Shown: positions 11,861 through 45,746 of the stretch, in pieces
How the letters are laid out: each line of letters starts with the position of its first letter
How positions within the stretch are numbered: the first letter of the stretch is position 1
DNA from: an uncultured Pseudomonadales bacterium
GTDB taxonomy: Bacteria; Pseudomonadota; Alphaproteobacteria; UBA2136; UBA6156
Reading direction: 5' to 3'
Assembly (NCBI GenBank): GCA_964601735.1
Contig: CAZROO010000004.1
Span: 10,289 to 74,288, forward strand
Length of the DNA stretch: 64,000 nucleotides
Made by a program: the position numbers and the translations under genes
The notes under the pieces: model-generated
Database searches by the model: none
Told to the model about the DNA's origin: nothing
What the model saw: only the letters and a program-made list of their open reading frames with translations

Positions 11861-11935
11861 TGGCGTCCCGTAGGGGAATCGAACCCCTGTTTCCACCGTG
11901 AAAGGGTAGCGTCCTAACCGCTAGACGAACGGGAC
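11861..11935 (-). tRNA. tRNA-Glu (anticodon TTC)
   Basis: GTCCCGTTCGTCTAGCGGTTAGGACGCTACCCTTTCACGG...GGTTCGATTCCCC...CCA on the minus strand. Confidence 0.85.
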
Positions 11936-12030
11936 AACCGGGGTGCTTATAGCGGGGGCGCCGGCAATATGCAACAGGCTAAATTGCGCTTGCCAGACTT
12001 TGTGACCACCGCTATAAACCCGCCCGGAGC

Positions 12031-12105
12031 GCGGGAATAGCTCAGTGGTAGAGCATCACCTTGCCATGGTGAGGGTCGAGGGTTCGAATCCCTTTTCCCG
12101 CTCCA
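12031..12105 (+). tRNA. tRNA-Gly (anticodon GCC)
   Basis: GCGGGAATAGCTCAGTGGTAGAGC ... anticodon loop TTGCCAT ... GGTTCGAATCC ... CCA. Confidence 0.85.
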
Positions 12106-24361: not shown

Positions 24362-24561
24362 AGGTAACGATTAGTACGCAGGACGGCGCCAATAGTAAAG
24401 TCAAACAGTGGTAAAGAGGTTGTAAACGCCACGTAAGCTTAGTTGCGTTTAACTTACCTGATGGCCTTTTGATATTGCTCCCTGCGGCAGGCAGTCTACC
24501 ATGAGGCTGTGGGAGGGCGCCGGTGTCTGAAGGCTCTCGCCCCGACAGAGGAGGAAAAGAC

Positions 24562-24900
24562 ATGAAAACGAAAAAAACTCTGCTTGGCATCGCCGCCGTG
24601 GCCGGACTGGCTGCTGCGGGGATGGCCCTGCCGACTGCCGCCAGTGCGCAGGAGTGGCACGGTGGACGGGACTGGCATGATGGCGGTCACCGCTGGCATG
24701 ACGGGGGTGGTTATCGCCACGGCCCGCGCGGTTACTGGCATCATGGCCGTTACGGTTACTGGCGCGACGGCATGTGGGTAAACCTGGGTTATCCGGGCTA
24801 TTATGGGGCTCCGGTGGCCTACTACCAGCCGCAACCGGTGGCCTATTACCCGGCGCCGTATTATGGCCCGGCGTTGGGGCTGTCATTCCATATTCATTAG
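24562..24900 (+). CDS. small secreted His/Trp/Gly/Tyr-rich protein
   Basis: RBS GAGGAGGAAAAG. Signal peptide MKTKKTLLGIAAVAGLAAAGMALPTAASA. Repeats of WHDGG followed by a YYxP-rich tail. Confidence 0.55.
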   Translation: MKTKKTLLGIAAVAGLAAAGMALPTAASAQEWHGGRDWHDGGHRWHDGGGYRHGPRGYWHHGRYGYWRDGMWVNLGYPGYYGAPVAYYQPQPVAYYPAPYYGPALGLSFHIH

Positions 24901-24911
24901 GAACGTATAGA

Positions 24912-24950
24912 CCGGTGCCTGAGCTTGTGCCCGGGCGCCGTTTTTTTGAC
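24912..24950 (+). terminator. hairpin plus T7 terminator
   Basis: GC hairpin followed by TTTTTTT. Confidence 0.5.
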
Positions 24951-25004
24951 GCTGGATTTTTATACCGGAACGGATAACCTGTTTTAACCAAAGGAGAAGC
25001 AAAA

Positions 25005-25409
25005 ATGAAAACACCCCTGATAGCTCTTACCGCCTTGCTGGCTGCCACCGCCGGTACGGCCCTGGCCCAGACCCGCTGGCAAGGCCACGACTGGGACCCG
25101 CCCGCGAGCCAGCAATGGCATCACGATAACGGTCGTCATTCCGGCTGGGAGCGCCGTGAGGAACGCCGCCGCATGGTGTACGCGCCGCGCCGTGGGGCGA
25201 CTGTGCGCGAGTACGTATATTACCCCAATGCGCGTGCCTACTACGCGCCGTGGAATAAACGCTGGTACTACCGTCGTGGCAGCCGCTGGGTGGTGGCCGA
25301 ACGCGCGCCGGTGAGCATCAACCTGGGTAACGGGCTTAGCATCAGCCTGGGTGCCGACAGCCCGGTGGTATACGACAGCTACGTGGTGAAGCACTACCGC
25401 GAGTACTAA
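25005..25409 (+). CDS. small secreted protein with Tyr/Arg-rich C-terminal module
   Basis: Signal peptide MKTPLIALTALLAATAGTALA. C-terminal motif YVYYPNARAYY..KRWYYRRGSRW shared with the 25941-26525 protein. Confidence 0.55.
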   Translation: MKTPLIALTALLAATAGTALAQTRWQGHDWDPPASQQWHHDNGRHSGWERREERRRMVYAPRRGATVREYVYYPNARAYYAPWNKRWYYRRGSRWVVAERAPVSINLGNGLSISLGADSPVVYDSYVVKHYREY

Positions 25410-25417
25410 ACCACCGC

Positions 25418-25448
25418 GTTTTCACGGCCCCCAAGCGGGGCCGTTTTT
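25418..25448 (+). terminator. rho-independent terminator
   Basis: CACGGCCCC-CAAG-CGGGGCCG followed by TTTTTTA. Confidence 0.6.
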
Positions 25449-25581
25449 TATACGTAAATATCTGGAGTAAAAACATAAAAATGGCCTGCCGACCGTGTTG
25501 GCGCAGGCTGCCAGCAACCCTGTTGGAGACTAGACTGCGCCACCAATAAATAACCACTAATAAATAAGGGAGGATTATGTG

Positions 25582-25944
25582 ATGAAGAAGGACTTCCAGA
25601 AAACCACCGCCCTGTTCATGGCTACCGTGGGGTTGATGGCGAGCATTGCCGCGGCCCAGAGTTCGGGCGGCGGCTTTTCCGGCGACATGAACACCGGCAC
25701 AGGCACCGATGCCGGCGGCAACCCGGCGGGTGAATCGGCCGGTGGCAGCCTGAATGGCAACGCCCGCGTGAACACCGGCTACAACACCAGCAACGGCCGT
25801 AGCAGCACAGGCCCAGGTGGCGCGGGTGTCCGTGCCAACACCGCCAACAACCGGCATGTGAGCGAGAGCTGGATGAAGCATCGCTCCCATATGGGAACGA
25901 CGAGCATCACCAGCGCCAGTACAGGTAAGGGAGAAACAAAATGA
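25582..25944 (+). CDS. small secreted Gly/Ser/Asn/Thr-rich low-complexity protein
   Basis: RBS GGGAGG lies 8 nt before ATG. Signal peptide. Stop overlaps the next start (ATGA). Confidence 0.5.
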   Translation: MKKDFQKTTALFMATVGLMASIAAAQSSGGGFSGDMNTGTGTDAGGNPAGESAGGSLNGNARVNTGYNTSNGRSSTGPGGAGVRANTANNRHVSESWMKHRSHMGTTSITSASTGKGETK

Positions 25945-26525
25945 AAAGCACCTTTACGCTGGTGGCCCTGGTGATGGCCGGTGAAGCGATGCCGGTGGTT
26001 GGTTGGACGCAGGTGTTGACCACCGGCGGCACGGCGGGCAGCAGCATTAACGACGGCGCCAACATCGGCGCAGGCAACCATACCGGGGCGAGCGTCAATT
26101 TCAGTAACCCCGAGGCTGATCAGATTCGCACCCGGCTGGGCGGCAGCGGCCAAGCTGTGGCCAAACAAAACACGATAGGGCAGCTAAGACAGGCCGGAAC
26201 CGTCAGCACCAATAACGTGACCACCACGCCCGCGATGACGGGCGCGACGGGGAGCGTTCATGGCAACACCGCCGGGGCGGTGCGGGCCACCCGGGAAGTT
26301 CGGGGGGCGGCGACAGTGGCGGATATTCTGCCGCGCGGCAGCGCCAGCTATACTTATTACCCCGAGGCGCAGGTCTATTTTTCGTCCACTACCAAGAAGA
26401 CCTATTACTACAGCCGCAAGGGTCGCTGGTATTCCAGCACCAGCCTGCCCACGGGGGTAAAGCTCACCAACGGCCGCAGCGTACAGCTTAACGGCAATGG
26501 GGCGGCGAGCGTGATGACGCCGTAA
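25941..26525 (+). CDS. small secreted protein: low-complexity N-region plus Tyr-rich C-terminal module, paralogous to 25005-25409
   Basis: Signal peptide. C-terminal YTYYPEAQVYF..KKTYYYSRKGRWY aligns with the protein at 25005-25409. Confidence 0.55.
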   Translation: MKSTFTLVALVMAGEAMPVVGWTQVLTTGGTAGSSINDGANIGAGNHTGASVNFSNPEADQIRTRLGGSGQAVAKQNTIGQLRQAGTVSTNNVTTTPAMTGATGSVHGNTAGAVRATREVRGAATVADILPRGSASYTYYPEAQVYFSSTTKKTYYYSRKGRWYSSTSLPTGVKLTNGRSVQLNGNGAASVMTP

Positions 26526-26591
26526 GAGTGTGCGCCTTGTGTACGGTTAGCGCTTGACGGCCAGAAACTCTGCCCGTAAAACCCCTGCGCT

Positions 26592-26666
26592 TCCGGCGTA
26601 GCTCAGCGGTAGAGCAACGGACTGTTAATCCGTGGGTCGTTGGTTCGATCCCAACCGCCGGAGCCA
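26592..26666 (+). tRNA. tRNA-Asn (anticodon GTT)
   Basis: TCCGGCGTAGCTCAGCGGTAGAGC ... anticodon loop CTGTTAA ... GGTTCGATCCCAACC GCCGGAGCCA. Confidence 0.85.
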
Positions 26667-26667
26667 G

Positions 26668-26700
26668 ATTTAAAGCCCATCCAAGGATGGGCTTTTTTAT
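26668..26700 (+). terminator. rho-independent terminator after tRNA-Asn
   Basis: AAAGCCCATCC-AAG-GATGGGCTTT followed by TTTAT. Confidence 0.7.
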
Positions 26701-26746
26701 ACTTTTTGATAAATTTTTAAATGAGGCAGGCAAAGAGAATACAGAA

Positions 26747-26839
26747 GGTTGGGATTGAACCAACGACCCACGGGTTGCGCCGAAGGCGCACTGTTTATGG
26801 AGAGGGCAGTCCGTTGCTCTACCGCTGAGCTACGCCGGA
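26747..26839 (-). pseudogene. tRNA-Asn-derived pseudo-tRNA (inverted partial duplicate with altered anticodon loop, no 3' acceptor strand)
   Basis: Minus strand repeats ~20 nt of upstream leader plus tRNA-Asn positions 1-33. A 32-nt insert then replaces TTAAT in the anticodon loop. The T-arm follows (1 mismatch) but the acceptor 3' strand and CCA are absent. Confidence 0.55.
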
Positions 26840-26948
26840 AGCGGTGGGGTTTTACGGGCAGGCGCGGGCGCCGTTAAGCAGAATACAATATGGCGCCCAG
26901 CATGGCGGCAGACTTGACGTTTTGCACCGCTTGGCCGAGGCTGAAGCC

Positions 26949-27593
26949 ATGCAAGAACAAGCCCGGCACAACATGGTGGATGGCCAACTCCGGCCTAATC
27001 AGGTCAACAACCATGCCCTGCTGGGCCGCCTGAGCAGTGTGGCGCGGGAGGATTTTGTTCCCGTGAGTTACCGCCAGACTGCTTATGCCGATACGGTGAC
27101 GCCGCTTTCGGCCACCCGCAGCCTGCCCGCGCCTATGACCCTGGCGCGGTTGCTTCAGGCGCTGGAACTGAAGGAAAACGACAACGTGCTGATTGTGGCG
27201 GGCAACAGCGGGTACAGTGCCGCGCTGGTGGCGCCGCTGGTGGCCGGTGTGACCCTGATTGAAGATGATCAGGCCTTGCTTAGCCAGGCGGGCAGGCATC
27301 TTTCTGGCTTTGCCAACGTGAGCGTGCATAACGCCGCGCCAACCGCCGGTTACCCGCAAACGGCGCCGTACAGCGTGATTCTGCTGGATGCCGCCGCTGC
27401 GCACCTTCCGCAAACGCTAACCTCGCAACTGGCCGAGGGGGGCCGCCTTGGCGCCGTGACGCTGGGCGGCAACGGATTGTGGGTGGCCAGTATTGTCACC
27501 AAGCATGGCGGAACGCTGTTTACTGAAGAACTGTTCGAGGCCAAACCGGCGTTGCACCCGGCGTTGATGGCCGAGCAGGGCTTTGTATTTTAA
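26949..27593 (+). CDS. pcm: protein-L-isoaspartate O-methyltransferase-like
   Basis: MVDGQLRPNQV..L..VARE.FVP is a PCMT-family N-terminus. Start chosen at internal Met 26949. Confidence 0.7.
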   Translation: MQEQARHNMVDGQLRPNQVNNHALLGRLSSVAREDFVPVSYRQTAYADTVTPLSATRSLPAPMTLARLLQALELKENDNVLIVAGNSGYSAALVAPLVAGVTLIEDDQALLSQAGRHLSGFANVSVHNAAPTAGYPQTAPYSVILLDAAAAHLPQTLTSQLAEGGRLGAVTLGGNGLWVASIVTKHGGTLFTEELFEAKPALHPALMAEQGFVF

Positions 27594-27677
27594 TATAAAC
27601 CTGCCCGGCCATCCCCTTATGTTGTGCGCCGTTGGCACAACGGCCGAGCAGGATTTTGTATTTTAATATAAACCTGT
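27569..27677. repeat. 35-bp direct repeat (2 mismatches) duplicating the 3' end of pcm
   Basis: GGCCGAGCAGGGCTTTGTATTTTAATATAAACCTG at 27569-27603 and GGCCGAGCAGGATTTTGTATTTTAATATAAACCTG at 27643-27677. Spacer contains a 7-bp hairpin. Confidence 0.65.
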
Positions 27678-27692
27678 GTTTTAGGAAATTTT

Positions 27693-27767
27693 TGGAGGCC
27701 GGAACGGGATTTGAACCCGTGCATCGCGGTTTTGCAGACCGCTGCGTTACCACTTCGCCACCCGGCC
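27693..27767 (-). tRNA. tRNA-Cys (anticodon GCA)
   Basis: GGCCGGGTGGCGAAGTGGTAACGC ... anticodon loop CTGCAAA ... GGTTCAAATCC ... CCA on the minus strand. Confidence 0.8.
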
Positions 27768-44000: not shown

Positions 44001-44286
44001 TCTGATGACCTCGTTCGCCTTCATCATGGGTGTGGTACCGCTGGTGTTTTCCACCGGTGCGGGATTTGAAATGCGCAATGCCATCGGTGTGACCGTGTTT
44101 GCCGGGATGATTGGCGTGACCATGCTGGGTATTTTTTTGACCCCGATGTTTTACGTGCTGCTGCGCACGCTCAGCGGTAAAAAGCTGACGCAGCACAGCA
44201 CCGAGGAAGTGCCGGAAGAACACGAATTCTGCGAAACCATTATGGAAGAGGGCAGCAAACCCACCAAAAAGGGAGGCAAAAAATAA
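41056..44286 (+). CDS. RND multidrug efflux permease (AcrB/MexB, HAE-1 family)
   Basis: 1076 aa, 12 TM with two large periplasmic loops. MNISRFFIDRPIFA is the canonical N-terminus. Confidence 0.9.
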   Translation: MNISRFFIDRPIFAGVLSMLVFLCGLISLPLLPISEYPDVVPPSVVVRAQFPGATPDVIAQTVATPLEEQINGVENMLYMSSQSTADGSMTLTATFKLGTDPDYAQQLVQNRVNQALPRLPDIVKQIGVNTAKSSPNFIMVVHLVSPNDRYDITYLHNYAVLNVKNQLSRLNGIGEVVSFGGGDYAMRIWLDPNKLAARGLTASDVVNAVREQNNQAAVGSIGTQPMKDPLAFELPITTQGRLQTVEEFQNIIVNANQQGGVIRLKDVGRVELGPNAYSPESLVDNKPAAALGIFQAPGSNALALSSAVRQKMEELKKNFPDGVDYTIVYDPTQFVRTGIDKVVETLVVAILLVALVVIVFLQTWRASIIPLLAVPVSIIGTFAVLHLLGFSINNLTLFGLVLAIGIVVDDAIVVVENVERNIEEGLPPRQATYQAMREVSGPIIAIALTLCAVFVPLAFISGLTGQFYKQFAVTIAISTIISAFNSLTLSPALTAVLLHAKNAKPDRPTQVIDSVFGRFFRWFDGFFHRISEKYGQNLEKFIKRRPLGLGLYALVVVLAALGLFILPAGYIPLQDKQYLVAFSQLPPGASLDRTRKAIMQMSELGMHQEGVAHAVAFPGLSISGFTASSNAGIVFLPLKPFEERKSWSTYGPAIAGAMMGKGFAIQDAFSAVFPPPPVNGLGTIGGFKLQIEDRADLGDEALYEATQAVLNKARQNPKLSGLFSSYEINVPQLKADIDRTKVKQLGVNINDVYTAMQVYLGSLYINDFNKFGHTYQVIAQADAPYRSHVEDILNIKVRSASGAMIPLGSMMSVKNSFGPDRSMRYNLYRSADINGGPAPGVSTNQAQDELVKIIKATLPKGMDYEWTDLTYQQILAGNTTIYIFPLCVLLVFMVLAAQYENLILPLVIILIVPVVIASALFGLWVTSLDINVFTQIGLIVLVGLACKNAILIVEFARELELQGMPTLKAALAASRLRLRPILMTSFAFIMGVVPLVFSTGAGFEMRNAIGVTVFAGMIGVTMLGIFLTPMFYVLLRTLSGKKLTQHSTEEVPEEHEFCETIMEEGSKPTKKGGKK

Positions 44287-45746
44287 TGAAGAATCTCCAA
44301 TCCCTCACGCTTGCCATATTGGCCGCGACCTCGCTTTCGGCTTGCGCGTGGCTTGAGCCGAGCTTTAAGCTGCCGGGTTTCGGCGGCGATGAAAATACGC
44401 AAGCCGCGGGTACCCCCGCCCCATTTGTGAGCCCCACCGTGGTGGGCAGTTGGCAGGTGGCGCAGCCCCGCGTGGCCGAGCCGCGCGGCAACTGGTGGGA
44501 GATGTACAACGACCCGCAGTTGAACGACCTGATGGCCCAGGCCACCGCCAACAACCCCAACCTGCAGGTGATGGCCGCGCGGGTGAAGCAGGCGCGCGCG
44601 CTGGTCAGCGAGGCCAACAGCCGGTTCTTCCCCACCGTGGATGCTACGGCGGACGTGACCCGCCAGCGTACCTCGCCTGCTTCCTTCGGTTTTGGCGGCA
44701 GCGCCAGCACCTTTACGCTTTACCAGACCGGGCTTAACGCCAGCTATGAACTCGACCTGTTCGGGCGCATCAGCGGCGAAGCACGCACCGCCAGGTTCCA
44801 GGAACTGGCGCAGGAAGATTTGTACCAGAGCGCCAAGCTGGCCATGCAGGCCGATATGGTGAATGCCTGGTATGGCCTGCGCGCCGCCAATGCCGCCCAA
44901 AGTGCGGCGGAAGAAAGCCTGAAACTGGGCGAGGAAGCGCTGGCGCTGGTGAAGAAGCGTTACGAGGTCGGCGATATTTCCAACGCCGAGTTTCAGCAGG
45001 CCAGCGCCAATTTGCTGAACCAGCGCAACAGCGCGCTGAGCATTGCCCAGCAACGCAGCCAGACGCAGAACCAACTGGCCACGCTGATTGGAAAACCCTC
45101 TACCGCATTCGGTATTTCCACCACTGCCATTGCCGATTTGCCGCCGATGGTACCCGCCGATATTTCGTCCAGCGTGCTGCAACGCCGTCCGGACGTGGCC
45201 GCGGCCGAGCACCAGCTGGCGGCGGCCAACGCCAATATCGGCGTGGCGCGGGGGGCGTTTTTCCCCAGCATCAGCCTGAGCGCCAACGGCGGCTTTGCCA
45301 GCACGCAACTGAGCAACCTGTTCAAATGGAATAACGTCACCTGGGCGGCGGGCCCGGCGCTGAGCCTGCCCATCTTCCAAAGCGGGGCATTATTCGCCAA
45401 CCTGCGCAACGCCAAGGCGCAATACGAAGAAGCCGTGGCCGCCTACAAAGGCCAAGTGCTAACAGCGTTCCAGGACACCGCCAACGGCCTGGACGGCCAG
45501 CGTACGGCAACCGAACAGGCGGCGGGCCAACAGCAGGCCTATGCGGCATTGGCCAAGAGCGCCGAGGCCTCAAAGGCGCAATACGATACCGGCGACATCA
45601 GCAAGCTCGATTATATCAGCGCACGGCAAACGCTGCTCAACGCGCAAATCAGCGAGCAACAAGGGTTGCTTAACGCCTACACCGCCAGCACCGCGCTCAT
45701 TCGGGCGCTTGGCGGCGGTTATGGGGTTTCGGATACAGCCCCGTAA
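44286..45746 (+). CDS. efflux outer-membrane factor lipoprotein (NodT/OprM family)
   Basis: Lipobox LSAC. Two OEP repeats. ATGA overlap with the permease gene. Confidence 0.85.
   Translation: MKNLQSLTLAILAATSLSACAWLEPSFKLPGFGGDENTQAAGTPAPFVSPTVVGSWQVAQPRVAEPRGNWWEMYNDPQLNDLMAQATANNPNLQVMAARVKQARALVSEANSRFFPTVDATADVTRQRTSPASFGFGGSASTFTLYQTGLNASYELDLFGRISGEARTARFQELAQEDLYQSAKLAMQADMVNAWYGLRAANAAQSAAEESLKLGEEALALVKKRYEVGDISNAEFQQASANLLNQRNSALSIAQQRSQTQNQLATLIGKPSTAFGISTTAIADLPPMVPADISSSVLQRRPDVAAAEHQLAAANANIGVARGAFFPSISLSANGGFASTQLSNLFKWNNVTWAAGPALSLPIFQSGALFANLRNAKAQYEEAVAAYKGQVLTAFQDTANGLDGQRTATEQAAGQQQAYAALAKSAEASKAQYDTGDISKLDYISARQTLLNAQISEQQGLLNAYTASTALIRALGGGYGVSDTAP

Follow-up and report, generated by a model that had tools for sequence, protein, structure and literature searches.

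Within a 64,000-nt stretch of DNA (hereafter the window) from an uncultured alphaproteobacterium, an intact tRNA-Asn gene is faced by a second, incomplete tRNA-Asn on the opposite strand. The locus raises the question of which of the two copies is the original one and whether the incomplete copy is a relic of a rearrangement, a working RNA gene or the scar of a mobile element. The organism has been sampled poorly; only three close relatives of its pcm protein, which is encoded next to the tRNA pair, were found among 5.8 billion proteins (one 99% and two 62% identical), and a scan of the genome-contig collection with the pcm protein yielded no match. The initial annotation of the window had described the incomplete copy as a duplicate of tRNA-Asn and considered it to be either an integration/excision scar or a tRNA-derived structured element.

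Anatomy of the inverted tRNA-Asn pair

A repeat search disclosed two pairs of inverted arms, one of 55 nt with 96% identity (26570-26624/26807-26861) and another of 30 nt with 93% identity (26627-26656/26747-26776), and so confirmed the inverted repeat of about 55 bp, composed of the leader and tRNA-Asn nt 1-33, that had been noticed before. Read on the minus strand from 26861 to 26747, the near-copy consists of a 22-nt leader and tRNA bases 1-33, followed by an insert and then by bases 39-65 (cf. Table 1). It carries two substitutions relative to the intact gene, T39C and G57A. The single T-arm mismatch mentioned in the initial annotation corresponds to G57A in the T loop, while T39C also differs in the copy; similarly, the insert reported to replace TTAAT is the same one, but its length is 33 nt rather than 32 nt. 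Past CCCAACC the copy reads TTCTGTATTC, so the 3' acceptor strand and CCA are indeed gone, and CGCCGGA, the 3' acceptor strand of the intact gene, is replaced by CTTCTGT.

The Rfam tRNA model aligned with the copy at 26740-26839 (minus strand) over model positions 1-71 and scored 36.1 bits (gathering score, 29). In this alignment, three of the seven acceptor pairs and one anticodon-stem pair were non-standard, which leaves the copy without a seven-pair acceptor stem. No Rfam family besides tRNA was retrieved with the copy, and no intron family appeared even at E values up to 10. ARAGORN called only the plus-strand tRNA-Asn(GTT) at this locus and left the minus-strand copy uncalled. A gene-finder call of a complete, intron-containing tRNA with an intact acceptor stem had been named beforehand as the result that would contradict a tRNA-derived, non-canonical remnant; with no such call made and the acceptor stem defective, the remnant is supported. 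The minus-strand copy combines homology to a working tRNA gene with disabling lesions, which are the marks of a tRNA pseudogene (hereafter the pseudo-tRNA or pseudo-gene), and it is not expected to yield a tRNA that could be aminoacylated.

Table 1. Coordinates of the features at the tRNA-Asn/pcm locus of the window
Feature	Position	Strand	Basis or details
Promoter-like site P2 of the intact tRNA-Asn	26554-26582	+	Inferred from the sequence and from alignment with five other tRNA-Asn upstream regions
tRNA-Asn (GTT), intact, working copy	26592-26666	+	ARAGORN; Rfam tRNA, 71.8 bits
Hairpin AAAGCCCATCC-AA-GGATGGGCTTT, terminator of the intact tRNA-Asn	26672-26695	.	Terminator scan
A+T-rich 51-bp spacer adjoining the truncated 3' side of the pseudo-gene	26696-26746	.	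GC down to about 0.49
Pseudo-tRNA 3' block: anticodon-stem 3' strand, variable loop, T arm (bases 39-65)	26747-26773	-	26/27 (96%) vs intact gene
33-nt insert in place of anticodon-loop TTAAT	26774-26806	-	CCCTCTCCATAAACAGTGCGCCTTCGGCGCAAC
Pseudo-tRNA 5' block: 5' acceptor strand, D arm, anticodon-stem 5' strand, C32-U33-G34	26807-26839	-	33/33 vs intact gene (blastn-short; bases 1-33 = 26839-26807)
Promoter P1 and leader of the pseudo-gene	26840-26877	-	Promoter-like by alignment: TTAACG (26877-26872), 17-nt G+C-rich spacer, TAAAAC (26854-26849), leader cccaccgc
pcm (protein-L-isoaspartate O-methyltransferase), synteny anchor	26949-27593	+	PF01135
tRNA-Cys (GCA), convergent with pcm	27693-27767	-	ARAGORN, Rfam

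The promoter-like site of the intact gene is laid out as TTGACG (26554-26559), a 17-nt A-rich spacer, TAAAAC (26577-26582), and a G+C-rich leader, ccctgcgc. The body of this gene is 100% identical to tRNA-Asn of the relatives L004 and L015 (75/75 nt, blastn-short) and to that of L007 over the 57 nt held by the L007 contig. The hairpin that terminates it is also the sole hairpin open to a convergent transcript of the pseudo-gene. The 51-bp spacer between this hairpin and the pseudo-tRNA is missing from L015, and no significant similarity was found between it and the spacer of L004 (p = 0.8, for the DNA next to the truncated ends). At the end of one strain contig (L019:1-23), 23 nt (CAATAGCTTGGCGCTTTAGCCTA) replace the 5' half of the intact tRNA-Asn directly before GGACTGTTAATCC; this variant is probably an assembly artefact at the repeat, though it could be real. 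Many further contigs of the window species end inside or just short of the tRNA-Asn repeats (L001, L020, L022-L024).

The insert is composed of CCCTCTCCATAAACAG, a hairpin (TGCGCC-TTCG-GGCGCA), and a final AC, and no second occurrence of it was found within the window. It resembles the promoter/leader and 5' acceptor segment of tRNA-Asn from -10 to +7 (CTCTGCCCGTAAAACCCCTGCGCTTCCGGCG; p about 0.01), which hints that the insert was copied from a local template during illegitimate recombination and does not represent foreign DNA or a designed module. An internal promoter in the insert, a small plus-strand ORF, and an acceptor-like pairing with the flanks were all checked by eye and found unconvincing. 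We also considered a family of GC-rich palindromes (GTTGCGCC..GGCGCAAC) invading tRNA loops, an idea prompted by a pseudo-tRNA-Cys of L015 (see below) and by a hairpin at 27620-27640 of the window, and rejected it, as the counts in the window were at chance level.

The pcm locus in related genomes

The locus was compared among four or five lineages, two of which are represented by contigs ending inside the tRNA. A sister species (contigs L015, L017, and L018) has a pcm protein 91% identical in amino acids to that of the window, with an identity of 0.73 at 4-fold sites, and shares with the window the gene order of small ORFs, a 189-aa gene, tRNA-Asn (minus strand), pcm, tRNA-Cys (minus strand), and Wzy_C. 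Exactly at the position of the window pseudo-copy, all three contigs carry a single intact tRNA-Asn (75/75) on the minus strand, and in L015 its leader and -10 box match the window pseudo-gene at 23/23 nt. The distance between the stop codon of the upstream gene and the start of pcm is 210 nt in the sister species vs 424 nt in the window, that is, about 214 bp less. In L007, whose pcm is 62% identical to that of the window and 79% to that of L004, tRNA-Asn also lies on the minus strand, divergent from pcm, and has a normal TTAAT loop; the contig ends in the T loop, and the 3' end of the gene falls outside. More distant alphaproteobacteria show the arrangement tRNA-Asn (minus), tRNA-Cys (minus), pcm (plus), with no extra copy of tRNA-Asn. 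An intact ortholog with a P1-type promoter, divergent from pcm, is thus found at the position of the pseudo-copy in L015, L017, L018, and, as far as the T loop, L007. Since L015 has an intact tRNA-Asn at this very position with the same leader, the minus-strand "copy" of the window is, to judge from the loci compared, the resident gene, now disabled, while the intact plus-strand gene is an additional paralog unit. This reverses the earlier designation of the minus-strand element as the duplicate, since it is this element that appears to hold the ancestral position, promoter, and leader (L015, L007), the intact gene being the other paralog.

Six tRNA-Asn upstream regions were aligned, and all of them contain a -35 box, a 17-nt spacer, TAAAAC or TACAAA, and a G+C-rich leader. 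The P1 type, with a G+C-rich spacer and a T-rich stretch upstream, comprises the window pseudo-gene, L015, L025, and L007, while the P2 type, with an A-rich spacer (..aaac.tctgccc) and gtta..gc upstream of the -35 box, comprises the intact genes of the window and L004. P2 of the window is about 77% identical over 47 nt to the promoter of the intact L004 tRNA-Asn, and its spacer and the bases before the -35 box resemble only those of L004. In its leader and -10 box, the pseudo-gene agrees at every base with the intact tRNA-Asn genes of L015 and L025. The -35 box reads TTAACG in the window pseudo-gene only and TTGACG in the other five of the six regions. Furthermore, the 3' flank of the intact window gene, GCCAGATTTAAAGCCC (GAATT in strain L020), matches that of the L004 pseudo-copy, GCCAGAATTAAAGCCC, and also resembles the flank of the L015 tRNA-Asn, GCCAGTATTTAAAG.

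A different arrangement was found in L025 (69% identical by the upstream 194-aa protein), where a P1-type tRNA-Asn (L025:1625-1710) follows the 189-aa gene on its strand at a distance of 850 nt; two unrelated genes intervene, and the contig ends in the tRNA. The tRNA-Asn locus is evidently prone to rearrangement in this clade.

Another locus with a comparable pair is that of the distant MAG L004 (GCA_036261915.1), whose pcm is 62% identical to that of the window and whose 4-fold-site identity of 0.42 is near saturation. It also contains an inverted tRNA-Asn pseudo-copy, though one that lies to the opposite side of the intact gene and points away from it; this copy consists of GTAGCTCAGAGGTAGAGCAACGGACTG, the insert CCCATTTCATATAAGTGGG, CCGTGGGTCGTTGGTTCGATCCCAACCGCCGGAGCCA, and a terminator. 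The 5' acceptor strand is missing from this pseudo-copy and the 3' strand and CCA are present, whereas the window copy has lost the opposite strand; no recognizable tRNA-type promoter was seen at the L004 pseudo-copy by eye. Its insert lacks the UUCG hairpin but begins after the same base, G34, and matches the window insert at 9 of the first 13 positions (shuffle tests: p = 0.0007 anchored, 0.009 without the shared CCC, and 0.005 gapped). The two inserts are probably homologous, as judged from this alignment. Homologous inserts together with a shared P2 promoter suggest that the window and L004 lineages inherited an inverted pair, one member of it bearing the insert, from before their split, and that the pair would have been lost later in L015. 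No single-step path linking the arrangements of the window, L015, and L004 could be derived, and recombination between inverted copies, which is able to exchange gene bodies among promoters, could not make a divergent pair out of a convergent one. A scan of genome contigs with GGTAGAGCAACGGACTGCCC returned the L004 MAG again and nothing else, and a scan of the viral collection gave no match. The only hit of a metagenome-contig scan for tRNA-Asn with a 12-42-nt loop insert was a chance match inside a coding region and was discarded; this collection is evidently without the JGI contigs that carry the element.

Some further features of these genomes were noted. A divergent tRNA-Glu/tRNA-Gly pair is present in both the window (11861-12105) and L004 (L004:8912-9167), with the tRNA-Glu genes 100% and the tRNA-Gly genes 89% identical, but its position and orientation relative to pcm differ between the two, and such a relocation points to extensive local reshuffling between the lineages. 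In the marine relatives L008 (L008:1077-1907) and L011 (L011:673-1539), an HEPN_AbiU2 gene directly adjoins tRNA-Asn in a conserved block of tRNA-Asn (minus), tRNA-Cys (minus), pcm (plus), and OEP (plus). The left flank of the L007 locus was sought by means of the efflux outer-membrane (OEP) gene of L004; the closest homologs were the window OEP gene at 44286-45746, which has no tRNA beside it, and non-syntenic loci. Finally, L015 contains a direct partial pseudo-copy of tRNA-Cys (L015:3656-3719, in the sense of the minus-strand gene) 22 nt downstream of the real gene (L015:3743-3817). It matches the gene at 100% over bases 58-75 and likewise over bases 36-52, and TTGAA of its T loop is replaced by a 29-nt insert with a hairpin, GTTGCGCCCC-GTT-GGGGCGAC. 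Starting at base 36, within the anticodon loop, and running up to the 3' end of the gene, it looks like a displaced fragment from integration into a tRNA gene.

Relic, working RNA, or scar

We consider it rather probable, on the comparison of these sequences, that the minus-strand element at 26747-26877 is the resident tRNA-Asn gene, inactivated, decaying, and replaced by its convergent paralog, and the pseudo-tRNA is best read as an ordinary rearrangement relic that arose by duplication and recombination between inverted tRNA-Asn paralogs. The pseudo-tRNA-Cys of L015 and the rearranged tRNA-Asn of L025 were counted as support for this reading. In the proposed course of events, the resident gene, which has its own P1 and leader, would have had TTAAT of its anticodon loop swapped for the 33 nt and would have been left without the 3' acceptor strand, CCA, and a terminator of its own. 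Its -35 box would have drifted from TTGACG to TTAACG, its T arm would have accumulated changes (G57A, now fixed, and G53A, in most strains), and its role would have passed to the convergent paralog at 26554-26695 (P2, tRNA-Asn, and terminator). The high identity of the arms may reflect a fairly recent inactivation, gene conversion or recombination between the arms, or both. The two-copy arrangement with one insert-bearing member may be old in the clade, having been reshuffled by recombination and removed by deletion in some lineages. The insert may go back to the promoter, leader, and 5' acceptor segment of the gene itself, copied in scrambled form; if so, it would have arisen by illegitimate recombination among the tRNA-Asn copies and would not be foreign DNA.

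Alternatively, the element might encode a functional tRNA-derived small RNA of about 100-175 nt, transcribed from P1, with the tRNA elbow (D and T arms) and an enlarged anticodon arm bearing a C/U-rich loop (CCCUCUCCAUAAA); without an acceptor stem, such an RNA could not be charged and might act as a decoy or a base-pairing regulator. A tRNA-type promoter with correct spacing does remain, there is a hairpin downstream on the minus strand, and both the window and L004 keep the D arm, anticodon stem, and T arm while missing one acceptor strand. The insert-bearing copy of L004 also has a related loop start (CCC..T.CATA.A) despite near-saturated divergence, a likeness that exceeds the prediction of neutral decay and thus could mean constraint. 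Moreover, the 5' block and leader of the pseudo-gene are still perfect (33/33, and 23/23 vs L015), which calls for recent inactivation, gene conversion, or selection. Against a working RNA stand the absence of the element from the sister species L015 with the same flanks, the weakened -35 box, and the lack of a recognizable tRNA-type promoter at the L004 copy. The conserved G53-C61 pair of the T stem is broken by G53A in 5/6 strain contigs. The 94-nt core of the pseudo-tRNA folded no better than shuffled sequences (z = 0.00, vs -2.24 for the real tRNA), and RNAalifold detected no compensatory pairs among the three available versions of the element, in which the UUCG hairpin, half of the window insert, is not conserved. 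Rfam matched tRNA only, and the collection scans produced no further instance. In view of the fold, the alignment of the three versions, and G53A, the earlier suggestion of a structured element found no support here.

Bacterial tRNA-like regulatory RNAs such as YrlA possess an elbow of the D and T arms with a remodelled anticodon arm, and the pseudo-tRNA shares both of these traits. Unlike YrlA, however, it has no acceptor-like stem, the structure of its remodelled arm is not conserved, it is missing in the sister species, and it matches no Rfam family other than tRNA. Searches of the literature disclosed no description of a tRNA-like RNA of this insert-bearing, acceptor-less form. On balance, a relic, which we hold to be the likelier case by our own estimate, outweighs a functional tRNA-like RNA, which we deem unlikely. 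We would be still more reserved about a specific version, which seems quite unlikely on these sequences, namely that the acceptor-less, insert-bearing copy is a conserved tRNA-like RNA gene that has stood inverted beside tRNA-Asn since before the window/L004 split, with its arms renewed by gene conversion. The enlarged anticodon loop (CCC..U.CAUA.A) would then be the working part, e.g., as a base-pairing seed or as a decoy that draws off an enzyme or toxin reading the anticodon loop of tRNA-Asn.

The integration/excision scar proposed initially would imply that a tyrosine integrase crossed over in the anticodon loop of tRNA-Asn and that the element, which brought its own tRNA-Asn (the P2 unit), was later deleted down to 33 nt and about 220 bp. 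The break does lie exactly within the 7-nt anticodon loop, bounded by a symmetric stem, and this loop was reportedly named as an integrase crossover sublocation by Williams in 2002. In addition, an entire replacement tRNA-Asn is contained in the DNA that the window has in excess of L015, there is an A+T-rich spacer, and a classic direct 3'-half relic exists at tRNA-Cys of L015. However, the repeats at tRNA-Asn are inverted, not direct, the added DNA amounts to only about 214 bp, and no integrase, other recombinase, or other mobile-element Pfam family was found among the genes within about 5 kb on either side. The similarity of P2 to the promoter of a chromosomal gene at the pcm locus of L004 speaks for a long-resident chromosomal paralog more than for a recently imported gene, the insert is like the promoter/leader of the gene itself and not like foreign DNA, and the viral collection gave no match. 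Nor did the comparison with L015, in which the flanking genes are identical, disclose an island at tRNA-Asn, for which a check against related genomes had been proposed. We regard a mobile-element scar as distinctly improbable.

Even less credit is due to a programmed or frequent DNA inversion between the arms that would switch the intact tRNA body between P1 and P2. The 55- and 30-nt inverted arms are long enough for homologous recombination, promoters, bodies, and terminators occur in differing combinations in the window, L015, and L004, and the orientation of tRNA-Asn is opposite in L025 and L004. Yet all 6/6 contigs of the species that span the centre, derived from different samples, show one orientation, no recombinase gene lies nearby, and both states would produce the same two RNAs apart from two leader bases, leaving little to regulate; such a switch is very improbable. 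That the element is a functional tRNA gene whose anticodon loop contains an intervening sequence is hardly conceivable. The Rfam score above the gathering threshold would be in favour of this, but the loss of the 3' acceptor strand already refutes it, and CCA is gone and three of the acceptor pairs are non-standard as well. ARAGORN, moreover, made no call, with 33 extra nt in the loop, and these 33 nt are far too short for a group I intron, which takes about 200 nt or more with a conserved core (Intron_gpI was unmatched). No splicing endonuclease for such a tRNA insert is known in bacteria.

Comparison with known systems and flanking sequences

Fragments of tRNA genes and pseudo-tRNAs in prokaryotes have been traced mostly to integrating genetic elements or to CRISPR-Cas (van der Gulik et al. 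2023, PMC9897764). Like the partial non-canonical tRNA genes described there, the pseudo-tRNA exceeds the threshold of the tRNA model (36 bits), forms no cloverleaf, lies beside the real gene, and is easily mis-annotated; unlike them, it is inverted, has no island, and would be an ancestral gene that decayed while a paralog took over. The tRNA fragments at island ends are direct repeats of one part of the gene, located kilobases apart with an integrase included, tRNA-Asn and tRNA-Cys are common island targets, and the anticodon loop is a known sublocation of integrase crossover in tRNA genes (Islander, PMC4383910). The window shares with them a tRNA split at a loop and a second partial copy nearby, and the L015 pseudo-tRNA-Cys (bases 36-75, direct) resembles such a fragment; in contrast, the repeats of the window are inverted, cover the 5' block and the T arm, are 80-180 bp apart, and are not accompanied by an integrase. 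Parallels are also offered by recombination, gene conversion, or template switching between short inverted repeats (PMC8604942, PMC5941160), as the arms are near-identical, the centre differs, and the combinations of promoter, body, and terminator vary among relatives. Unlike in those cases, no isomer of opposite orientation was seen, and the mechanism suggested here is drawn from comparative anatomy.

The finding is chiefly of practical value, as the element scores above the Rfam tRNA threshold and could be annotated as a second tRNA. If the relic reading is right, the locus provides a worked example of tRNA-locus turnover, in which a resident gene is replaced by an inverted paralog with no mobile element involved and in which promoters, gene bodies, and terminators are reshuffled among related species. 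Should the functional reading be true instead, the element would stand for a new class of bacterial RNA derived from tRNA, in which gene conversion with the parent gene as donor keeps up the tRNA-like parts. The one feature worth a follow-up, if a mildly curious one, is the related copy with an insert in the distant L004 lineage.

Regarding the flanks, the position of pcm between the pseudo-tRNA and tRNA-Cys was confirmed (cf. Table 1). The 35-bp duplication said to flank tRNA-Cys turned out otherwise: it is a direct repeat (27569-27603/27642-27676, 94% identical) with both copies on the 3' side of tRNA-Cys, the first being the last codons and stop of pcm and the second lying 73 bp further on. 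Between the copies there is a 38-nt stretch with a hairpin (GTTGTGC-GCCGTTG-GCACAAC), and the pseudo-tRNA-Cys of L015 occupies the equivalent place.

The longest pcm ORF (26844-26948 region) begins at a GTG inside the leader of the pseudo-tRNA, and some JGI metagenome gene calls take this GTG as the start of pcm, giving 249-aa products (P0243, P0244). The 35 extra residues are missing in L015, L004, and L007, where pcm starts at MQ, and the GTG-start form is an annotation artefact; likewise, the 91-aa ORF at 26488-26763 (minus strand), which runs across the tRNA, is spurious. On the other side of the tRNA pair, four small tandem ORFs of 125, 134, 121, and 194 aa, rich in Gly, His, Tyr, Arg, and Trp, occupy 24523-26525 on the plus strand, and no Pfam family was found for them. 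They have signal-peptide-like N-termini (by eye) and are conserved in the sister species, and a search of 5.8 billion proteins gave just seven homologs of the 194-aa ORF, the lowest at 50% identity, from a MAG.
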